From Dehalococcoidia bacterium (GTDB lineage Bacteria; Chloroflexota; Dehalococcoidia; Lucifugimonadales; UBA3495): 64,000 bases of DNA. Each line of letters begins with the position of its first letter. Positions within the stretch are counted from its first letter, which is position 1. This document shows, piece by piece, positions 6,263 to 37,870 of the stretch. The notes beneath the pieces are model-generated. The model saw nothing but the letters and a program-made list of their open reading frames with translations. It did no database searches and had not been told where the DNA came from. The stretch lies in NCBI GenBank assembly GCA_041485445.1, contig JBGPJN010000001.1, positions 11,221-75,220 of the forward strand, in the 5' to 3' direction. The position numbers were made by a program, and so were the translations under genes.

Positions 6263-7213
6263 ATGGAACGCCCGGAGCTGTTGACCCTGCGGCATCGGCC
6301 TGCCGCCAAGTACCTCATCGCCGGTTGGAAGCGCTCTTGGTCCGACGGCGGCGAGGTATCCGGTGGGTTGCCGGAGTATTTAATGGACCACCTGCGGGCG
6401 CGGCCCATTGGGGAGATGGGGGCGGAGGTCTCCCGCATGTGCTACCCCTTCCAGGTAGCGGGGACCCACGATGCCTACCGCCCCGCGGTGGCCTACCGGG
6501 ATGGGCTGCCCACCAAAGCCATGTCCCGGGAGAACCGCTTCTACGACGCGGGCCAGGGTCTGGTCCTTTTCTTGGGTGAGGAGCCCTGGCACCGGATAGA
6601 TATCTACGGTGACGCCTTCTTCCAGGCGGTCCAGACGCTGGGAGTCCAGCAGACCGTGGCGGTGGAGGGCTATTATGGGACCTGTCCCCCGGAGCTGGAG
6701 CGGAGCATTAACTGCATCTACAGTCGCCCGGAGATGAAGGCGACGCTGGAACGGTACGGCCTGCGGTTCTCCAACTTCGGCAGCGAACGCCGCCAGGGGC
6801 CGACCATCGGCATGGCCCTGGTGACCCTGGCCCACTACCAACACCCGGAGCTGGCGATGTTGCGCATGGGGGCCATGGCGCCCATGTACCCTTTCACTGC
6901 CAGCAATGAGCAGGTGGGCATCACCACCGACCACCGCGCCTTTTACGACATCCTGCGCCGGCTACGGTCGCTGTTCCAGTTGGACCTGGACCTCTCCGAC
7001 TTGCGGCAGCGGGCGGACGCCGATGCGGACCGTTTGCAGCGGATTCTGGACCGCATCAGCGAGACCAATCCCGAAGCCCGGGAGATTATCCGGCGGGCCC
7101 AGGCCGACTACCAGGCCACGCCCTACGTGGAGCCGGTGGCGCTGGACCCCGCCCTGGACCGGACCCTGGACGACATACTCCGGAACCCCCCCGACCCCCC
7201 TGGGGGCAGGTAG
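6263..7213 (+). CDS. PAC2 (proteasome assembly chaperone 2-like, ATP-grasp-like) family protein
   Basis: The start is at MERPELL, preceded by a GGAGG SD. The pattern LIAGW...GGEVSG...LVLFLGEEP...YYGTCP...GPTIGMALV matches my recollection of bacterial PAC2 proteins. The tail is a C-terminal coiled coil. The ORF track begins earlier, at 6086. Confidence 0.55.
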   Translation: MERPELLTLRHRPAAKYLIAGWKRSWSDGGEVSGGLPEYLMDHLRARPIGEMGAEVSRMCYPFQVAGTHDAYRPAVAYRDGLPTKAMSRENRFYDAGQGLVLFLGEEPWHRIDIYGDAFFQAVQTLGVQQTVAVEGYYGTCPPELERSINCIYSRPEMKATLERYGLRFSNFGSERRQGPTIGMALVTLAHYQHPELAMLRMGAMAPMYPFTASNEQVGITTDHRAFYDILRRLRSLFQLDLDLSDLRQRADADADRLQRILDRISETNPEAREIIRRAQADYQATPYVEPVALDPALDRTLDDILRNPPDPPGGR

Positions 7214-20841: not shown

Positions 20842-23800
20842 CTATCCCGCCGTCCGCAGTATATCAAACGCCTTGAGCCGGCTGGCCGACCAGGCCGCCA
20901 GCGCCACGGACAGGAGGGTCGCCTCCACCAGGTTCAGGACCACCACGCCCACCAGCCAGCCTCGGACGTTGAAGACCATTGGGGGGATGACTTCCCGTCC
21001 GCTGGAGGTGAGGTCCAAGAATCCCAGCACCCACTGGCCCAGCCAGAGCCCCAGGGCGCCGCCCGCGGCCAGGGCCAAGATGGTCACCATGGCCCGTTCT
21101 AAGGCCAGGCCCAGGAAAAGCTGGCGACTGGAAAATCCCAGGGCCTTGACCACGGCCAGGTCCACCCGCTGGGCCTTGACCGCCACCACCGCATGGATGC
21201 CCAAGGCCAGCACCACAGTCACAGTCAAGGACCCCAGGGCAATCAGGGTGAGGCCGTCCCATCCACCGCCCGCCAGGGGGTCTCGCCCGGCCAACTGGGC
21301 GGCGGCTTTACCATCCCGCACCGAGGCGAAGCTGGGCAAGCGTTGGCGCAGCGCCAGCAGCACCTCTTCCCGGCTGGCGCTCTCTTCCACCGAGATCCAC
21401 GCTTCCTCAGGAGGTTGCACGCCGCCTCCGCCGACCCGGCTCAGGAAGTTCGCGTAGTCTTCCAGGGATACCAGGAGGAAGGGCTGCAGCGATGGGTCAA
21501 TGGTGGGGAAAAAGTTGGTCACTTCCCGGATGGTCACCAGCAAGACCTGCCTGCCGGCCCGCATGCGCACCTCCTGCCCTGGCTGGAAGGTAGGTCCGCC
21601 AATGGCGGGCAGCGGGAAGGGTCCCGGCGGCAGGAACGCCCCCCTGGGCGTTTCACCCGGCCCGCCTTGATCCCAGGAGTAGCTCAGCCCCGCCTGGCCG
21701 CTGCGAGCGCTTTGGCGTGTGCGCTCCACCGCATCTGCCACCGGTCCCGCGTGGGCCAGGGGCGCCCATCCGCCCGGAGCTTCGTACCCTTCGATGACCA
21801 TTCCGCCAGCGGGCAGCGCGGGTCCATTGACGGTTACGTCGTCCAGACTGACACTGCCCGGCGGCATTCTGGCGAAGGAACTGCCGGTGAGAAAAATGGA
21901 CACCAGGCCCCATTGCGGCTCCGGGGCGTTGGGCGCGCCGCCTGGGGCAAATGAGGAGTCAGGCAAGTTGGGCAAAGGGGCTTCCAAATAACCCCAGCCG
22001 GCGGCGCTGGAGATTGGAAGAGCGCCCAGGAGCACATCCCGGTGCTGGCCCTTGCCATCGGCCACCCGCGCCCACAAATTTAACGGTTGATGGAGGGGTC
22101 CCAGGTTCACTCGGTCGGTGTTGGCCCATACTCCGATGCTGGAGGCTTCGGCCGGGATTGGGATTCCCAGGGCTGGGTCCAGCAGGCCTGGGCTGATGGC
22201 GGTCCCGCCGGATACCGGCACCGCGGCTCCTTGCCGCAGGGACGCCAGGAGCTCTCGCAGGTCTTTGCCTGATGGCGAAAGGTCGTGCCGGTACCACCCG
22301 GCGGCGGGCAGAGTGTTAGGGTCCACTGCCACCAGCGCCGCCGATGCCTCGGAAAAGCCGCCCAGCAGGGTCACCGCCTCACGGCTGACTGGGCTCACCA
22401 CGCCCACGCCGGGCAGGGCGGACAACTCACGCTGGAGAGTGGGTTCAAAGGAGGGTCCTTTCACCACCACATCGCCGCCCACCTCGTACCGGGCCTGTTC
22501 CTGCTGGCTCCAGGACAGGGTTGACTGGAAGCTGGCCCCAAAGACTCCCAGGGCGGCGGACAGCATCACAATGACCACCAGGGAGGTATAGGGCAGCGGG
22601 TCCCGGGCCATTCGCGCCAGGGAGAAGGATGTCCAGGGGGGCGCCCACCGGCGTCCAGCCGCGCTCATTAATCGCATGAGCCACGGCATGACCCGCGCCA
22701 CCAGCAGGGCCGCCGCCACCAGCGCCAGGGTTGGGCCCAAGAGCAAGCTGGGGTCTACCACCTCCGGCGTGCGGGCCACCAAGCCCTGCTCCACAAAGCC
22801 TCCCCTGCCGCGGACCTGCCACCACACCAACCCCAACGCGCCCAGCGCCAGCAGGTCTAGGTAGTAACGCTGCAGGAAAGGCAAGGTAGGCGGTCTGGCC
22901 CGCAATCGCAAATACTCCACCGTACCCAGGCGGGCCATGCTCACGCCCGAGGCCAGCAATGTGCCCAGGGCCAGCACACCGCCGATGGCCCCAAACCAGA
23001 ACATGTCGGCGTCCAGCGCCACGGTCAGAGCGTCAGCGCCGCCGCCCGCGGGGTTTATGGTGCTTAGCAGGAGGCCGCGCACCATGGCCAGCGCCAAGAA
23101 TGGCCCGGCCACCACCGCCACCAGAATCCCGACCCCCTCCGCCAAGGCCAGCAGCCCCATTACCTGTAAGAGGCTGGCCCCCCGGCTGCGCAGCAGGCTG
23201 GCTTCGTCACTGCGGGTGCTTGCCATCAGCCCCACCACCACGGCCAGGAAATAGAGGATGACCACCACCACCAGAGAGATAAAGAGGAAAAGGGACACGC
23301 GCGCCAGGGTGAGCCTCCGCTGGTAGTCGGCCAGGGTGTTTTTCAGTCCGCTCAACACCAGGGACCGAGGAAACTGCTTGTTTATGTCAGTTTCCAAGGC
23401 CAGCATAGAGGCCCTGGCGGGCTCGGCAGTATCGGCTCGCAGCACCCGTGTGTCAAAGAAGAGAAACCAACTGTAGTCGCCCACCAAGGAAGGGTAGCGC
23501 GCCCCCAGGCCGCCAAAGAACGCGTCTTCTGGGACAAAGAAAGGCGCCAAGGGGCGGCCTGCGTAGTCCTGTATGGTGAAGTAGGTTGGGAACCCCATCC
23601 AGTACGGCTCGTTGGGGTCAGTGGGCTCCGCCAGGCCCACCACGGTGAGGGCGATGCGCTCCGGCGGGTCGGCACGGAATGGGATCAAGTAAAGCTGGGT
23701 GCCTACCTTCCACTGCATGGCGGCGGCAGTCTGCCGGCCCACCACCGCCTCTAGGGCCACGCCCTGGGCATGCAGCACCGGAGCAGATTCTGGCCAGCGT

Positions 23801-24237
23801 CCCTGCGCTAACCGCGAGTGCTGCTGGAAGTCGGTAAGGAAAAAGGGCCGGCCCAAAATGCTCTCAGGGCTTGCGGAATCGCCCTGAGGGCCGGAGACCA
23901 GCGGGAGGTTGGATTGCGTGCGGCCCGAGCGGTGCACCTCTCGGATCAAGTTGCCCACGCGCGCTTCCGCGATGCCCTCCACGGTCGAGCGCAGCCTCTG
24001 GTAATCCGCCGCGCCCAGAGGCCGGTTCTCCACGATAATCCATGTGTCCAGGACGCTTTGGGGGGTTGTGTCTAGGGCATGGCGCAGCCCGCCTTCAGCT
24101 ATAACTCGGGAGTAGCTGGCGCCGATGGCCAGGAGGGTTACGGCGGCAAGGACGCCAAAGGTGGTTACCGCCAGGAGGAACCAGGAAGAGGGGAGACGCC
24201 GGTACAGCAGCCACAACAGTGCCCTGGTCCATCTCAT
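20842..24237 (-). CDS. large FtsX-family ABC permease (paralog of the downstream gene)
   Basis: It is 1131 aa. FtsX-like segments (LLRSRGASLLQV and VVKALGFSSRQL) are each followed by TM helices, and the architecture matches 17355-20792. Confidence 0.8.
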   Translation of the reverse strand: MRWTRALLWLLYRRLPSSWFLLAVTTFGVLAAVTLLAIGASYSRVIAEGGLRHALDTTPQSVLDTWIIVENRPLGAADYQRLRSTVEGIAEARVGNLIREVHRSGRTQSNLPLVSGPQGDSASPESILGRPFFLTDFQQHSRLAQGRWPESAPVLHAQGVALEAVVGRQTAAAMQWKVGTQLYLIPFRADPPERIALTVVGLAEPTDPNEPYWMGFPTYFTIQDYAGRPLAPFFVPEDAFFGGLGARYPSLVGDYSWFLFFDTRVLRADTAEPARASMLALETDINKQFPRSLVLSGLKNTLADYQRRLTLARVSLFLFISLVVVVILYFLAVVVGLMASTRSDEASLLRSRGASLLQVMGLLALAEGVGILVAVVAGPFLALAMVRGLLLSTINPAGGGADALTVALDADMFWFGAIGGVLALGTLLASGVSMARLGTVEYLRLRARPPTLPFLQRYYLDLLALGALGLVWWQVRGRGGFVEQGLVARTPEVVDPSLLLGPTLALVAAALLVARVMPWLMRLMSAAGRRWAPPWTSFSLARMARDPLPYTSLVVIVMLSAALGVFGASFQSTLSWSQQEQARYEVGGDVVVKGPSFEPTLQRELSALPGVGVVSPVSREAVTLLGGFSEASAALVAVDPNTLPAAGWYRHDLSPSGKDLRELLASLRQGAAVPVSGGTAISPGLLDPALGIPIPAEASSIGVWANTDRVNLGPLHQPLNLWARVADGKGQHRDVLLGALPISSAAGWGYLEAPLPNLPDSSFAPGGAPNAPEPQWGLVSIFLTGSSFARMPPGSVSLDDVTVNGPALPAGGMVIEGYEAPGGWAPLAHAGPVADAVERTRQSARSGQAGLSYSWDQGGPGETPRGAFLPPGPFPLPAIGGPTFQPGQEVRMRAGRQVLLVTIREVTNFFPTIDPSLQPFLLVSLEDYANFLSRVGGGGVQPPEEAWISVEESASREEVLLALRQRLPSFASVRDGKAAAQLAGRDPLAGGGWDGLTLIALGSLTVTVVLALGIHAVVAVKAQRVDLAVVKALGFSSRQLFLGLALERAMVTILALAAGGALGLWLGQWVLGFLDLTSSGREVIPPMVFNVRGWLVGVVVLNLVEATLLSVALAAWSASRLKAFDILRTAG

Positions 24238-24329: not shown

Positions 24330-24668
24330 GTGCATGGCCCCCCACAAGCCGAAAAGGTGTCTGCCTTGCAGGGCACACCTTTGGCCGCCAGTCTATCTGT
24401 CGCCTCCCCGATCTCGTGGCACAATTCCACCCGCTCAATATGCAATTCCCTTCAGTATTACCGATTTTACATCACCGGTGGCTAGCGTGCCCAGGACTTG
24501 GTAGTGGGTCAGTTTGTTACGGCAGGGAGCGGGGACGCTATCCGTCTCACCGGCGAAGGCCGGTGTCCAGGTACGACCGTGGTTGAGATGCTCTGGTGGA
24601 TTCCGGCTTGCGCCGGAAAGACGAGGACCTATCTGACCCACTACCCAGGACTCCCATACTGGAGCGCC
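24330..24668. repeat. roughly 190-bp dispersed repeat (copy X), interrupted by MITE copy A
   Basis: Once 24499-24652 is removed, this stretch aligns by eye with 54128-54308. Shared blocks include ATTCCACCCGCTCAATAT, TACCGATT and CCCAGGACTCCC..TGGAGCGC. Confidence 0.6.
24499..24644. mobile_element. MITE copy A (non-autonomous, about 146 bp)
   Basis: The terminal inverted repeats are TGGTAGTGGGTCAG ... CTGACCCACTAC. Two internal GC hairpins are present. The element is flanked by an 8-bp direct repeat CCAGGACT (24491-24498 and 24645-24652). Confidence 0.8.
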
Positions 24669-24688
24669 AGGGCCCTTTCACTTTCCTC

Positions 24689-24795
24689 CACTCGCTGGTC
24701 GAGTAGTCCCGATAAAATCGGGACGTATCGAGATCAACGGGGAGACGGGTTTCGATACGTCCCGACTGCGGTCGGGACTACTCGACCAGCGAGTG
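24689..24795. repeat. nested palindromic element (24-bp perfect outer IR, 14-bp perfect inner IR, four TCCCGA/TCGGGA cores)
   Basis: CACTCGCTGGTCGAGTAGTCCCGA (24689-24712) is the exact reverse complement of 24772-24795. TCGGGACGTATCGA (24718-24731) is the exact reverse complement of 24752-24765. Confidence 0.8.
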
Positions 24796-24864
24796 CAAGG
24801 CCCTTGCGGCGACCGACAATGAAAAGGAAAAGGCCCTGCCGGGGGCGGCGTTCCACTTGACCAG

Positions 24865-25377
24865 ATGGCCGACGGGCAATATAGTTTCCCGGTGCAACAA
24901 TTGGAATCTGAAACAGCGCCCGGTGTCTCCCAGTCCGAGCACTGCTCCGCCCAGTTGTTGGACGTGGTCCCGTTAATCATGCGCCATATCCGCATTGCAA
25001 CGCGGCATCCGGCCGTCCCGGGCATTTCTGATCACCAGCTCCGTTGCCTGAGATATCTGCGGGACCACCCTGGGGCGTCACTCTCCCAGTTGGCCGAGTA
25101 TCTTGGCCTGACCATGCCTTCCACATCGAAGCTGGTCCAACGGTTGGTGACGCGGGACGTGGTGGTGCGCCGCGTGGGCGCAGACCGGCGCCGTGTCTGC
25201 CTGTCGCTGACGGAGCAGGGTCGGATCTCAGTGGCGCTAGCCCGTGGGGAAACGCGCCAGGAACTGTCAGAAAGTCTGCACTCCCTGTCCCACGAGGAAC
25301 TGGCCAAAGTGTCGGCTGCCTTCATGATCCTGCGCCGGGTCTTTTTGCGAGGTGATGTCGGTGTCAACATACCTTAG
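24865..25377 (+). CDS. MarR family transcriptional regulator
   Basis: The winged-helix segment reads LRYLRDHPGASLSQLAEYLGLTMPSTSKLVQRLVTRDVVVRRVGADRRRVCLSLTEQG. The gene sits immediately upstream of the ABC exporter pair. Confidence 0.85.
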   Translation: MADGQYSFPVQQLESETAPGVSQSEHCSAQLLDVVPLIMRHIRIATRHPAVPGISDHQLRCLRYLRDHPGASLSQLAEYLGLTMPSTSKLVQRLVTRDVVVRRVGADRRRVCLSLTEQGRISVALARGETRQELSESLHSLSHEELAKVSAAFMILRRVFLRGDVGVNIP

Positions 25378-29287: not shown

Positions 29288-29370
29288 TGCGGCGTAAATC
29301 CCCCCTTTGCAAAGGGGGGTTGGGGGGATTTCGTCAGCCCAAGTTAAGAGCTTTAGGCAAGGGTCTATAA
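29288..29370 (+). repeat. dispersed repeat, left copy (contains the perfect 20-bp palindrome CCCCCCTTTGCAAAGGGGGG)
   Basis: Its reverse complement aligns with 53758-53850, sharing CTGACGAAATCCCCCCAACCCCCCTTTGC and TTATAGACCC. The palindrome lies at 29300-29319. Confidence 0.7.
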
Positions 29371-33454: not shown

Positions 33455-35383
33455 CTATTTTGACAGTCTGCTGTTTTCGTCATCTAGCCGGAGTTGTTCC
33501 AGTTCTTCCCAACGTGCGTAGGCCTCAGCCAGAAGCGTTTTCAACTCTACTAGCCGATCCTTCGTGGCAATAATGTCGGCCCTGTCCCTTTTGTAGAGTC
33601 CTGGGTCTCCCATGGCTTGGAACAACTCCGTCTGTTCCCTCTCCAGACACTCAATGGTCTGGGGCAGTGCATCCAGTTCCTTTTGCTGCCTGAACCCCAA
33701 TTTTGGCCTTGCCCTGGGCGCCTGAGCCGGTGGGGAGTCTTGTTTGCTGGCAGATGCCTTACTCGGTTTTGCTTCCTGGGGGCGCTGACGCAGCCAGTCA
33801 TCGTACCCACCCACGTACTCCTTCACGATGGAGCCGCCTTCAAAAACGATGGTGCTCGTTACGATGTTGTTGATGAACGTCCTGTCATGGCTGACGAGGA
33901 GAATCGTTCCTGTGTAGTTAATCAAGAGGTCTTCAAGGAGGTCAAGGGTCTCAATATCAAGGTCGTTGGTGGGTTCATCCAGCACAAGGAGATTGGAGGG
34001 CCGCGTGAAGAGACGGGCGAGCATGAGGCGGTTGCGCTCCCCACCGGAAAGAGTAGAAACAAGAGAGCGAGCTTGATCTGGAGAAAAGAGAAAATCTCGC
34101 ATGTAGCCCATGATGTGACGACTCTTCCCGTTAACGGTAACTGTATCAGTGCCGTTGCCGACGTTTTCTATGGCGGTCTTGTTCTCGTCCAATTGCTCAA
34201 GAAGTTGGTCAAAGTAGCTGATTTGCAGGTTAGCGCCGAGGCGGACTGTTCCCGTCTCCGGACTGAGCGTGCCAAGCAGAAGGCGCAAGAGGGTTGTCTT
34301 GCCGCTGCCGTTGGGGCCCAGAATGCCGATCCTATCGCCCTTCAGAATCGTGGTGGAGAAATTTGTGATTACTTGAGTATCGCCATAACTAAAGCCAACT
34401 TTGTCCGCCTTGGCCACCAATGTTCCGGATCGCTCCGCCTCGTGGGCTTCCATCTTCACGTTCCCAGGCCGTTCCCGTCTGGACCTGCGCATCTCACGCA
34501 TTCTTTCCAGTTCCTTCACGCGGCCCTCGTTGCGCGTCCGCCTCGCCTTGATGCCTCCCCGAACCCAATGTTCTTCCTGTTGCAGCTTCCTGTCGAACAG
34601 AGCGTTTTGCGTCTCCTCTGCCTCGCGGTCGGCGCTTCGCCGAACCAGGAATGTCTCATAGTCGCAGGACTGATCAAACAGCCTGCCCCGATCAATTTCC
34701 ACTATGCGGGTAGCAATTCTCTGCAAGAACATCCGGTCGTGGGTAACGAAGATCAAAGCGCCCGTGAACCGAACCATGATCCGTTCCAGTTCCTTGATGG
34801 AATCAATATCCATGTGGTTGGTCGGTTCATCAAGTAGGAGGATATCCGGCTCACCAACCAGCGCCCTTTTCAACAGCACTTGACGTTTTAGGCCAGCGGA
34901 AAGGGAACTGAAAGGGAGGCCCGGATTCACGCCAAGTTGCGAGAGGATTTTGCTGACCTGTTCCCTCTTGTACCACCCTCCCTCCATCTCAAGGTTGTGG
35001 TGAATGCGGTCCAATTCTTCCCGAAGATGCGGCGTGCCTTCATTCAGCAACCCGGCCAGCAACCCGGCGCTTAGGGCTGGATTCCGTGCGATCAGGTCAA
35101 CGTATTCCCTGCTTCCGCTGGCGACTACATCAAACACGGTTCCTGGTAATTCATGGGGCACCTCTTGTGAGAGATAGGCGGAGTGGACACCACGTTGGAC
35201 GGAAAGAGCGCCGGAGTCTGGTTTGACGCTTCCATCTATCAGCCGCAGTAGCGTGGATTTGCCCGAGCCGTTCCTGCCTACCAGGCCAACCTTTTCTCCG
35301 CGCTCGATGGTTAGGTTGACCCCGTCAAAAAGGGGGACGCCAGTAAAGGAAAGGGATATACCTTGCATACCTATGAAGGCCAT
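33455..35383 (-). CDS. ABC-F family ATPase (Uup-like, C-terminal coiled coil)
   Basis: There are two ABC cassettes (GRNGSGKST and GPNGSGKTT; LSAGLKRQ and LSGGERNR), no TM domain, an inter-domain linker and a charged C-terminal coiled coil. Confidence 0.9.
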   Translation of the reverse strand: MAFIGMQGISLSFTGVPLFDGVNLTIERGEKVGLVGRNGSGKSTLLRLIDGSVKPDSGALSVQRGVHSAYLSQEVPHELPGTVFDVVASGSREYVDLIARNPALSAGLLAGLLNEGTPHLREELDRIHHNLEMEGGWYKREQVSKILSQLGVNPGLPFSSLSAGLKRQVLLKRALVGEPDILLLDEPTNHMDIDSIKELERIMVRFTGALIFVTHDRMFLQRIATRIVEIDRGRLFDQSCDYETFLVRRSADREAEETQNALFDRKLQQEEHWVRGGIKARRTRNEGRVKELERMREMRRSRRERPGNVKMEAHEAERSGTLVAKADKVGFSYGDTQVITNFSTTILKGDRIGILGPNGSGKTTLLRLLLGTLSPETGTVRLGANLQISYFDQLLEQLDENKTAIENVGNGTDTVTVNGKSRHIMGYMRDFLFSPDQARSLVSTLSGGERNRLMLARLFTRPSNLLVLDEPTNDLDIETLDLLEDLLINYTGTILLVSHDRTFINNIVTSTIVFEGGSIVKEYVGGYDDWLRQRPQEAKPSKASASKQDSPPAQAPRARPKLGFRQQKELDALPQTIECLEREQTELFQAMGDPGLYKRDRADIIATKDRLVELKTLLAEAYARWEELEQLRLDDENSRLSK

Positions 35384-35596: not shown

Positions 35597-35647
35597 GCGG
35601 GTAGGGGCTAATAACTCGTGTTCTACGTGTCAACCCAAAGCAGATGC

Positions 35648-35794
35648 GGGTAGTGGGTCAGTTTGATATGGCAGTGAACGTGGACTCTATCCGTCTCACC
35701 GGCGAAGGCCGGTGTCCAGGTACGATCGTGGTTGACATGCTCTGATGGATTCCGGCTTGCGCCGGAATGACGAAGACATATCTGACCCACTACC
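35648..35794. mobile_element. MITE copy B (about 147 bp)
   Basis: It has the same sequence family and orientation as 24499-24644. The TIRs are GGGTAGTGGGTCAG ... CTGACCCACTACC. It is flanked by the direct repeat CAGATGC (35641-35647 and 35795-35801). Confidence 0.8.
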
Positions 35795-35863
35795 CAGATG
35801 CAGCTCACCCAAGATTATGGCTCCTGCCTTTGCGTCCGGTAGGTATAATGGTATCCCTGGCAG

Positions 35864-37870
35864 GTGATAATGTTAAGTGCATCCAACATCAGCAAAGCCT
35901 ACACGGAGCGGACCCTGTTCAGTGGCCTCACCCTCAACGTGTTGGCCGGGGACCGCATCGCGCTGATCGGCTCCAATGGTTCTGGCAAGACCACCCTCCT
36001 GGACATCCTGGCAGGCGACGCCTCTCCAGACACGGGGAGCATAACAAGGCAGCGCAACGTCACCATCGGCTATCTCAAACAGGAGCTCACCCCATTTTCC
36101 GGCAAAACCCTGCTCCAAGAGGTCTTGGAGGCCTCTTCAGAGGTGACCGCGCTCAAGGAGAGGATCGCTGATACCCAGGAGTCTCTGGCGTCGGAGACCG
36201 GGCAGGCCAAGTCGGTTGCGCTGTGGCAGGAGCTCACTCATCTTGACACCGCACTGGAGGCGGCGGGCGGAGGCGACCGAGAGCACGAGGCCAAGGCCAT
36301 CCTCTTCGGACTGGGCTTCAAGCAGGACGGCTTTGTCCGGCCCCTCGGCGAGTTCAGCGGCGGTTGGCTGATGCGGGCTGCCCTGGCCAAGTTGCTTTTC
36401 AGAAATCCAGACCTTTTGCTCCTCGACGAGCCAACCAACCACTTGGACCTTGATGCAAACCTGTGGTTCGAGAATTTCTTGGCCTCGTTCCGGGGCGCGG
36501 TAGTCCTCACCTCTCACGACCGTGCCTTCCTGAACAAGGTGGCGACCAGGGTACTGGCCCTTGAGCGCGACGAGGTGGTGATCTTCACGGGCAATTATGA
36601 CGGCTACCTCATTGCCCGCGAGCGGTCCCTCCAGGTCAAGGAGGCGGCCGCGGCAAGGCAGGAGCGCGAGGTCCAGAGACAGATGCGCTTTGTGGAGCGC
36701 TTTCGCTACAATGCCCAGAAGGCCAGCCAGGTGCAGAGCCGCTTGAAGCAGCTTGCGAAGGTTCAGCCTATCCAGTTGCCCAGGGCGGTCAAGAGAGTAC
36801 ACTACTCATTCCCGGAGCCGCCACGCAGCGGCGTTGAGGTCATTCGGCTAGCCAACGTAAGCAAGTTCTATGGCGATCACGCCGTCTATCGCGGTCTGAA
36901 CCTAGTCCTAACGCGTGGCGATCGGGCTGCCCTGGTTGGGCACAACGGCGCCGGCAAAACCACCATGCTGAAGATTCTCGCGGGTGTCCTTCCCTTTGAG
37001 GAAGGCGAGCGAAAAACCGGTCACAACGTGGTGACAGCCTACTACGCGCAGCATGTGCTGGAGCTCCTCAACCCCGGCAACACCCTCATGGAGGAACTGC
37101 AACAGGCGGCGCCCGACGAGACGGATCAGAACTTGCGCCACACCCTCGGCGGCTTTCTGTTCAGCGGCGACGACATCCGAAAGCCCATATCTGTGTTGTC
37201 GGGTGGAGAGAAGGCGCGGGTGGCCCTGGCAAAGCTGCTGCTCCAGCCAAGCAACCTGCTGTTCATGGACGAGCCAACCAACCACCTTGACATCGTCTCA
37301 AGGGAGGTGCTCTCAGACGCCCTCAGCGACTATCGCGGCACCATCTGCTTCATAACCCACGACCGAACCCTGATACGACAGGTCGCCAACAAGATCATTG
37401 AGATCGAGAACGGTCAACCAAAGGCCTTCACCGGGGACTACGACAGTTACCTGTACCGCAAGCAGACCGAAACCGCGCAAGGCGCAACCACCTCCATTGC
37501 CGGCGGAGCAAACAATGACGCCTCGGGGCGCGGCGCTGCCAGCAACCGCCTCAACCGGAGACGTTCCGGACGACCTCTGGGCGCCGAAGAGGAGTTGCGC
37601 CGGGTCCTCCGCAGTGAGGCCCGCAAGCTGGTCATACGGATAGACGCGATTGAGGCCAAGCTGGCGGACCACGAGGCCCGGATTGCGGAGCTGGAGGCGA
37701 TGTTTTCCAGCCCGGACCAGTTCCAAGACCGGGCTCTGCTTGCCGCCGCTGGAGAGCAGCACCGGGAGCACAAGGAGGAGTCACAATCTCTCTGGGAGGA
37801 GTGGGAGCGGTTATCGCTGGAGGCGGAGAGTGTCGACAGCCGGCTCGCGGGACTCAATGCCGACCAATAG
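35864..37870 (+). CDS. ABC-F family ATPase
   Basis: There are two ABC cassettes (GSNGSGKTT and GHNGAGKTT; FSGGWLMR and LSGGEKAR), no TM domain and a long charged C-terminal extension. Confidence 0.9.

Follow-up and report, generated by a model that had tools for sequence, protein, structure and literature searches.

The 64-kb stretch of DNA analysed in this study (hereafter the window) carries two copies of a short, structured repeat in intergenic DNA. Copy A occupies the interval between a gene for an FtsX-type permease (20842-24237, - strand) and marR (24865-25377, + strand), at 262 bp upstream of the permease gene and 219 bp upstream of marR. Copy B separates a pair of divergent ABC-F genes (33455-35383, - strand; 35864-37870, + strand) and is 265 bp upstream of the first and 69 bp upstream of the second. 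Both sites are intergenic and promoter-proximal, as the initial annotation of this DNA had placed them. The closest homologues of the flanking proteins come from Chloroflexota/Dehalococcoidia MAGs. Relatives at 81-90% identity share the coding regions with the window, and the homology stops at window 24263 and 35461, short of the insertion points (L317 and L318 for ABC-F, L321 for the FtsX permease); no empty site was found in these three loci, in which synteny and nucleotide homology end ahead of the insertion sites. In the closest relative (L317 1-9650, with an ABC-F gene 88% identical), IS3-, IS256- and IS4/IS5-type transposase genes crowd the region upstream of ABC-F and stand in place of the second ABC-F gene of the window. 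The ABC-F neighbourhood is a mobile-DNA hotspot in this lineage. Another structured sequence, the perfect G/C-run palindrome AAATCCCCCCTTTGCAAAGGGGGGTTGGGGGGATTT, was observed at 29296-29331, downstream of a 652-aa ABC gene, and its 33-nt core recurs at 97% identity in a related Dehalococcoidia MAG (L321 2648-2693). This palindrome could be a terminator or could represent a further family of small repeats.

The two copies and their boundaries

The copies stand in the same orientation and align over their full length without a gap, 134 of 146 positions being identical (91.8%, 12 substitutions by BLAST). The full-length, same-orientation pair described in the initial annotation was thus recovered; its length of 147 bp was reduced to 146 bp, since the leading T or G lies outside the element. 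When aligned with 39 bp of flank, the surroundings of the two copies are unrelated and the homology begins and ends abruptly at the termini. A BLAST search with copy A matched only 35649-35794, with everything else in the 64 kb at noise level, and no third copy was found there. The G+C content of the element (61.6%) is close to that of the window (62.7%). No conserved ORF was found in the element, in agreement with the coding capacity denied to it earlier, as the mechanically called ORFs at 24498-24860 and 35767-36171 are not common to both copies.

Both copies are bounded by terminal inverted repeats, as had been claimed; these are perfect over 13 bp, GGTAGTGGGTCAG/CTGACCCACTACC, and GGTAGTGGGTCAG has exactly four exact sites in the window, one per end of each copy. 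The right end fits the family consensus over only 13 bp, and most relatives over at least 17 bp. A copy of the 13-mer with one mismatch (GGTAGTGGGCCAG, 6827-6839, - strand) has no partner end, is otherwise unlike the element, and is most likely a chance occurrence. The copies differ at 24517, 24520, 24526, 24529, 24532, 24537, 24577, 24587, 24596, 24619, 24625 and 24629; all 12 substitutions lie outside the terminal repeats and the two hairpins, for which a post-hoc calculation gives a chance of (84/146)^12, or about 0.001.

The boundaries of the flanking duplications were fixed from about 120 relatives with the same termini, described below. The 8 bp abutting the two ends were identical in 57 of 121 short elements and matched at seven of eight positions in another 23, while shuffled flank pairs reached 5/8 at most, and duplication lengths of 7 and 9 bp were rejected by the same flank statistics, which do not support 10 bp either. 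As these matches lie far above the shuffled pairs and other lengths are unsupported, the family duplicates 8 bp at its target. Both window duplications are imperfect (7/8), a match expected by chance at about 4e-4 per copy by our own calculation, and they differ between the copies. The copy-specific direct repeats proposed initially were confirmed in this respect, their boundaries and lengths having to be shifted: the duplication listed for copy A, CCAGGACT at 24645-24652, includes the last base of the right terminal repeat. In each window duplication the single mismatch is the base adjoining the left end, whereas the mismatches of the 7/8 cases in the family are scattered over all positions; we regard this shared position as a coincidence, unexplained but minor.

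Table 1. Positions of the two repeat copies and their parts in the window, and of four plasmid elements with the same type of ends
Feature	Position	Strand	Sequence or basis
MITE copy A, 146 bp	24500..24645	+	alignment, exact 13-mer ends, BLAST
MITE copy B, 146 bp	35649..35794	+	alignment, exact 13-mer ends, BLAST
Left terminal inverted repeat, copy A	24500..24516	+	GGTAGTGGGTCAG exact over 13 bp (24500-24512); TTTG lengthens the match to the family consensus GGTAGTGGGTCAGTTTG
Right terminal inverted repeat, copy A	24633..24645	-	CTGACCCACTACC on the + strand
Left terminal inverted repeat, copy B	35649..35665	+	exact 13-mer at 35649-35661
Right terminal inverted repeat, copy B	35782..35794	-	exact 13-mer
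Target-site duplication, left, copy A	24492..24499		CAGGACTT; 8-bp length from family statistics
Target-site duplication, right, copy A	24646..24653		CAGGACTC; 7/8 against left
Target-site duplication, left, copy B	35641..35648		CAGATGCG; 8-bp length from family statistics
Target-site duplication, right, copy B	35795..35802		CAGATGCA; 7/8 against left
REP-doublet-like palindromic module, copy A, 81 nt	24543..24623	+	CGTCT, hairpin 1, TCCAGG, 28-nt spacer, TGGA, hairpin 2, AGACG
REP-doublet-like palindromic module, copy B	35692..35772	+	hairpins 35697-35714 and 35750-35767
Hairpin 1, copy A	24548..24565	+	CACCGGC-GAAG-GCCGGTG
Hairpin 2, copy A	24601..24618	+	TTCCGGC-TTGC-GCCGGAA
Mesorhizobium loti 582 plasmid element, 3370 bp	L319 796-4165		ends exact; 8-bp duplication CGCTGGTG
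Acidiphilium multivorum plasmid element, 2634 bp	L320 1267-3900		ends GGTAGTGTCTCAG; 8-bp duplication AAGCCGAG
Hoeflea sp. plasmid element, 4224 bp	L323 2555-6778		ends GGTAGTGTCTCAG; 8-bp duplication GATGATTG
Methylocapsa polymorpha plasmid element, 3125 bp	L322 2776-5900		ends near-exact; no duplication

The hairpin doublet in the interior

Between the ends, each copy holds the two GC hairpins already seen in the initial annotation, with the sequence CCGGCGAAGGCCGG of hairpin 1 at 24550-24563 and 35699-35712 and the sequence CCGGCTTGCGCCGG of hairpin 2 at 24603-24616 and 35752-35765. They belong to a doublet of two inverted arms of about 29 nt, each arm being a hairpin and the right arm an imperfect reverse complement of the left. 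The two copies are the only places in the window where the module was found. Metagenomes scanned with the interior 20-mer GGCGAAGGCCGGTGTCCAGG yielded 78 loci, 53 of them with the full hairpin 1. A complete unit, CGTCAC-ACCGGCGAAGGCCGGT-GTCCAGG, a spacer of 9-30 nt and CCTGGAT-TCCGGCyTyCGCCGGA-ATGACG, was present in at least 21-30 of the 78, and none of these free-standing units has IS1-type ends or flanking duplications. In total, about 50 metagenome contigs (among L239-L316) hold the doublet with no IS1 ends around it, and short contigs often hold two to four of its arms. Hairpin 2 varies by paired changes that preserve the stem (TTCCGGC..GCCGGAA, TTCTGGC..GCCAGAA, TGCCGGC..GCCGGCA, TACCGGC..GCCGGTA, GTCCCGGC..GCCGGGAC). 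The free-standing form can be written as CGTCACACCGGCGAAGGCCGGTGTCCAGG, 9-30 nt of spacer and CCTGGATTCCGGCyTyCGCCGGAATGACG, as in L269 3259-3328, L285 2130-2201, L316 7568-7641 and L304 1117-1201, and some subfamilies lengthen the inverted repeat outward (CTGAATAAGTCC...GGACTTGTTCAG). By analogy with REP/BIME/REPIN and with Neisseria dRS3-flanked NIME units, the free-standing doublet looks like REP/REPIN or dRS3.

A derivation of the hairpin module from the IS1 parent, which is described in the next section, was considered and rejected. The REP-like arm was found neither in about 1.06 Mb of IS1-bearing loci nor in 0.84 Mb of other MITE loci, and it was likewise not found in the cultured-plasmid elements or in the three related Chloroflexota loci. 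Because the doublet stands free without IS1 ends elsewhere and does not occur in the IS1 loci, the window element is a chimera, with IS1-type ends around a REP-like doublet, moved as one unit. Diverged relatives of the whole composite are present in two metagenome contigs (L262 1247-1344, 87% identity, and L247 510-643), in which the spacer is conserved and the IS1-type ends have decayed. Inside copy A, a direct repeat, GGACGCTATC (24533-24542) and GGACCTATC (24625-24633), brackets the doublet, and its counterpart in copy B is weaker (GGACTCTATC, 35682-35691, and AGACATATC, 35774-35782). This bracketing repeat may be the footprint of the entry of the doublet into a proto-MITE of about 55 bp, or it may be due to chance.

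Elements with the same ends and their transposase

A collection of species-representative genomes was scanned for both termini at a distance of 105-135 nt, and the same termini were found to bound at least 119 short elements of 131-161 bp at no fewer than 118 MAG loci. Their hosts are Acidobacteriota, Nitrospirota, Bacteroidota, Planctomycetota, Alpha-, Beta- and Gammaproteobacteria (Pseudomonadota), Verrucomicrobiota, Actinomycetota (Acidimicrobiales), SAR324, Methylomirabilis, Armatimonadota and others. Beyond the terminal 17-30 bp, the window element resembles none of these other short elements. With the ends trimmed, 127 short elements fell into 56 interior clusters, which appear to follow lineages: the largest comprises 31 copies in two Nitrospirota MAGs, and others comprise 13 copies in Acidobacteriota MAGs (mostly Terriglobales), four in one Betaproteobacteria MAG and three in one SAR324 MAG. 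The further copies with flanking repeats that the initial annotation had called for were therefore found at the level of the family, by the flank counts given above. One element of only 36 bp (L158 6179-6214) consists of nothing but two abutting terminal repeats (GGTAGTGGGTCAGTTTGACCAAAGTGACCCACTACC) and has its own perfect 8-bp duplication, GGTCGCTG, which shows that the ends alone suffice. A tblastn search for an autonomous element in the MITE loci (at least 118) returned only a 34-aa transposase fragment, in L049, and blastn of the window element against PLSDB plasmids gave no match. In the literature, the terminal 13-mer and the hairpin 14-mer gave one unrelated primer match or nothing, and we found no description of IS1-derived MITEs with these ends and nothing on ISMhu11.

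The autonomous relatives came from a scan of IMG/VR with the 17-mer GGTAGTGGGTCAGTTTG, which gave at least 120 loci, the paired ends being separated by 36 bp to 4.8 kb. When all ORFs up to 3.5 kb inward of the ends were clustered, one protein of about 275 aa proved to be common to about 29 of these loci; its ORF sits at one end of the element and reads outward. The transposases with these ends are single uninterrupted ORFs of 267-295 aa. They score 26.8 and 30.3 bits against Pfam DDE_Tnp_IS1 (PF03400), above its gathering cut-off of 24.1, and the best NCBIfam model is the IS1 family (NF033558), at 58 and 70 bits, below the curated cut-off of 100. Weak matches to the NCBIfam models of IS1595 (20-28 bits) and IS6 (23-28 bits) were also obtained, the IS1 model leading by more than 40 bits, and the score for Pfam DDE_Tnp_IS240 is just under its cut-off. 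Homologues number more than 8000 and are named IS1 family transposase by both NCBI and JGI. Elements of 1-5 kb with the same ends that encode this transposase include L129, L137, L152, L196 and L319, and long transposase-bearing elements with perfect 8-bp duplications are L137, L152, L188 and L196. The link between the ends and the protein was re-tested without selecting on the ends, using the four best tblastn matches in PLSDB, which are plasmids of cultured Alphaproteobacteria (Table 1). In every full element inspected, the ORF adjoining these ends is this transposase. The autonomous element with matching ends, which the initial annotation had proposed to look for, thus exists elsewhere and encodes an IS1-family DDE transposase; within the window, tblastn found no IS1-family transposase of this type, and the earlier statement that a cognate transposase is lacking there holds.

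In the ISfinder definition, members of the IS1 family have ends of the form GGnnnTG, direct repeats of 8-9 bp and a DDE transposase (PMC10425158, table 8; PMC6807381, discussion), and GGTAGTG at both ends of both window copies fits this form. The extended consensus end of the present elements is GGTAGTG(GG/TC)TCAGTTTGAAATTT. In several elements, among them L129 (4826-4838) and L320 (3888-3900), the transposase ORF enters the right end, and the TGA of ...CAAACTGACCC (CAAACTGACCCACTACC) appears to be its stop codon. Many MITEs of other phyla retain the preceding ...TCAAAC (Ser-Asn) codons, and L319 is an exception in which the transposase ORF stops about 270 bp short of the end of the element. 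The constancy of the end across phyla may be explained by coding constraint from the final codons and stop of the transposase.

Many of the full-length elements have a recurring pair of passenger genes upstream of the transposase, as seen in L319 (1281-2876), L322 (3281-4911) and L323 (3122-4949) and in the viral loci L129 and L153. The first gene of the pair encodes a protein of about 370-390 aa with HTH_3 and Peptidase_M78 domains (IrrE/ImmA-like), which matches PADLOC PD-Lambda-2_B at 1e-40 to 2e-49, and the second encodes a protein of about 160 aa without a family match. Other full-length elements carry a DNA methyltransferase-like ORF. Judged from these sequence matches, the pair is suggested to be candidate anti-phage cargo borne by IS1.

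Origin of the element and its relation to known systems

The interior of the repeat could suggest that the whole is a REP/REPIN-type element, moved as single-stranded DNA by a RAYT (an IS200/IS605-like tyrosine transposase), with the outer and flanking repeats being incidental. The two inverted, hairpin-forming arms at 24543-24623 do have the anatomy of a REP doublet, the module exists free of IS1 ends, often as several arms in one short contig, and the changes in hairpin 2 keep its stem paired. However, the window copies share 43 and 22 bp past the module, up to exact IS1-type termini that are followed by 8-bp duplications, while duplications are foreign to REP/REPIN elements and are not seen at the free-standing modules; the module is also missing from the rest of the window and from the three loci of related Chloroflexota. 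We consider this origin very unlikely, and because of its DDE-type ends and its duplications the whole element is not a REPIN. A MITE mobilised by another 8-bp-duplicating family with GG... ends (IS1595, IS6/IS26, ISL3 or IS256) is only slightly less improbable. Such a source would agree with the secondary matches of the transposase to IS1595, IS6 and DDE_Tnp_IS240 and with the form GGnnnTG, which is common to IS6/IS26 and IS1 (PMC6807381). Against it, IS1 is the top model in both libraries (58-70 bits compared with at most 28 in NCBIfam, and above the gathering score in Pfam), the homologues are named as IS1 family, and the ORF beside these ends was the IS1-type protein in every full element inspected. 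The two copies might also owe their origin to segmental duplication or gene conversion, with terminal and flanking repeats arising by chance, which would account for there being only two copies in view in the window; the homology ends exactly at the termini, and exactly the same termini recur in hundreds of elements from other phyla that have 8-bp duplications of their own, so that this reading is effectively refuted and the earlier conclusion in favour of transposition is upheld.

It is also conceivable that the repeat is, or became, a functional host structure, such as a small RNA, a 5'-UTR or insulator hairpin, or a protein-binding site for the divergent genes, which would be compatible with an origin from a transposon. 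Both copies lie in divergent promoter regions, their predicted folds are far more stable than those of shuffled sequences on either strand (z = -4.1 to -5.4), and the hairpins and ends are free of all 12 substitutions. On the other hand, both strands fold equally well, as a DNA palindrome would; such folding is what nested DNA palindromes should show, and it is no sign of an RNA gene. Rfam gave no match in the whole window at gathering score and, for 24400-24750 at E up to 10, only chance-level scores of 8.7-16.3 bits against gathering scores of 50-60. Consensus scans found no promoter inside the element, and a terminator scan found one weak terminator-like hairpin, in copy A only. The genes beside copy A and those beside copy B are unrelated in function, and no copy of the element lies near the orthologous genes in the closest relatives, where homology stops short of the insertion points. 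A host function is accordingly improbable in our view, though less so than the other alternatives.

Each copy is very probably a non-autonomous MITE, of the deletion or capture type, of an IS1-family insertion sequence. The MITE reading of the initial annotation is thereby supported and refined to an IS1 parent, and the hairpins turn out to form a palindromic doublet that is distinct from the MITE around it and widespread in its own right. In the proposed mechanism, a DDE transposase of the IS1 family, encoded in another part of this genome or on a plasmid or phage that passed through, would bind the GGTAGTGGGTCAG(TTTG) termini and insert the 146-bp unit where it has opened the target with an 8-bp stagger, the repair of which would leave the copy-specific 8-bp direct repeats. 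Only the ends are needed, and the interior does not stem from the transposase gene; rather, it is the 81-nt REP/REPIN-like GC-hairpin doublet, which is independent in other genomes. Once joined to IS1-type ends, the composite would have spread as one unit. From the sequences we infer that the unit was mobilised in trans, in what order the chimera was put together, and that it is selectively neutral for the host. Because the copies have diverged by 8% and one base of each duplication has mutated, both insertions are probably not recent; the ends of both copies are still intact. The sites of both copies, between divergent promoters, are of a kind that tolerates insertions.

A broader scenario is put forward tentatively, and we think it rather unlikely. 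A single-ORF clade of the IS1 family would keep an almost invariant 17-bp end (GGTAGTGGGTCAGTTTG) in more than 10 phyla, its right end consisting partly of the last codons and stop of the transposase, and would have repeatedly spawned unrelated MITE families. A REP/REPIN-like doublet, otherwise free-standing in other bacteria, would in this Chloroflexota lineage have been captured by the MITE or have invaded it, so that two repeat-propagation systems would be fused in a chimera of 146 bp, and the conserved hairpins might give the unit a host role, e.g., by insulating transcription or binding a protein between the divergent promoters. The element itself is mobile DNA of an ordinary kind, apart from the unusual pair of hairpins in its interior; it involves no new mechanism and belongs to no Rfam family. 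Nor is a new mechanism indicated by the cross-phylum constancy of the ends, the multitude of independent MITE families or the REP-like interior. Two structured repeats of this genome that would otherwise be puzzling in their promoter regions are hereby accounted for, and they point to an IS1-family transposase having once been active in a Chloroflexota (Dehalococcoidia-like) lineage. The ends are a simple probe of 13-17 nt, with which MITEs and IS1-type elements with cargo are retrieved by the hundreds from different phyla, some of them bearing a candidate anti-phage gene. Such a probe could aid the annotation of MAGs, in which repeats of this kind break assemblies and stay unannotated.

As compared to REP/BIME/REPIN sequences, the window interior is similar in its inverted, GC-rich, imperfect palindromes of about 29 nt, its variable spacer and the stem-preserving substitutions between instances, and an inverted-palindrome doublet able to form a long hairpin was found in the interior 24543-24623 only. 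It differs in that the module occurs in the window only inside an IS1-type MITE, and the whole unit has DDE-type ends and duplications. With the IS1 family (PMC10425158, PMC6807381) the element shares ends, GGTAGTG, that fit GGnnnTG and an 8-bp duplication, and the protein of its full-length relatives with the same ends passes Pfam DDE_Tnp_IS1 and carries the annotation IS1 family transposase. It departs from that family in having no transposase, in that the related transposases fall below the NCBIfam IS1 cut-off, and in that many of the full elements are 2.4-4.8 kb long with passenger genes. The IS1 of E. coli has a two-ORF arrangement, InsA/InsB', joined by a programmed -1 frameshift; the related transposases, unlike this classical IS1, are single ORFs of about 275 aa and not two frameshifted ORFs, and their uninterrupted form places them in a single-ORF branch of the IS1 family and not with classical E. 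coli IS1. Like other bacterial MITEs, among them MITEAba12 of Acinetobacter (PMC6382973) and the 187-nt ISL3-related MITE of Microcystis (PMC11448079), the window element is small (146 bp, MITEs being shorter than about 300 bp), non-coding (no ORF is shared by its copies) and intergenic, is present in two copies in the window, and has IS-matching terminal inverted repeats, copy-specific duplications and a presumed mobilisation in trans. Unlike those two, its parent family is IS1; its termini are common to dozens of unrelated MITE families across phyla (127 elements in 56 clusters), and its interior is a foreign palindromic doublet and not a remnant of the parent IS.
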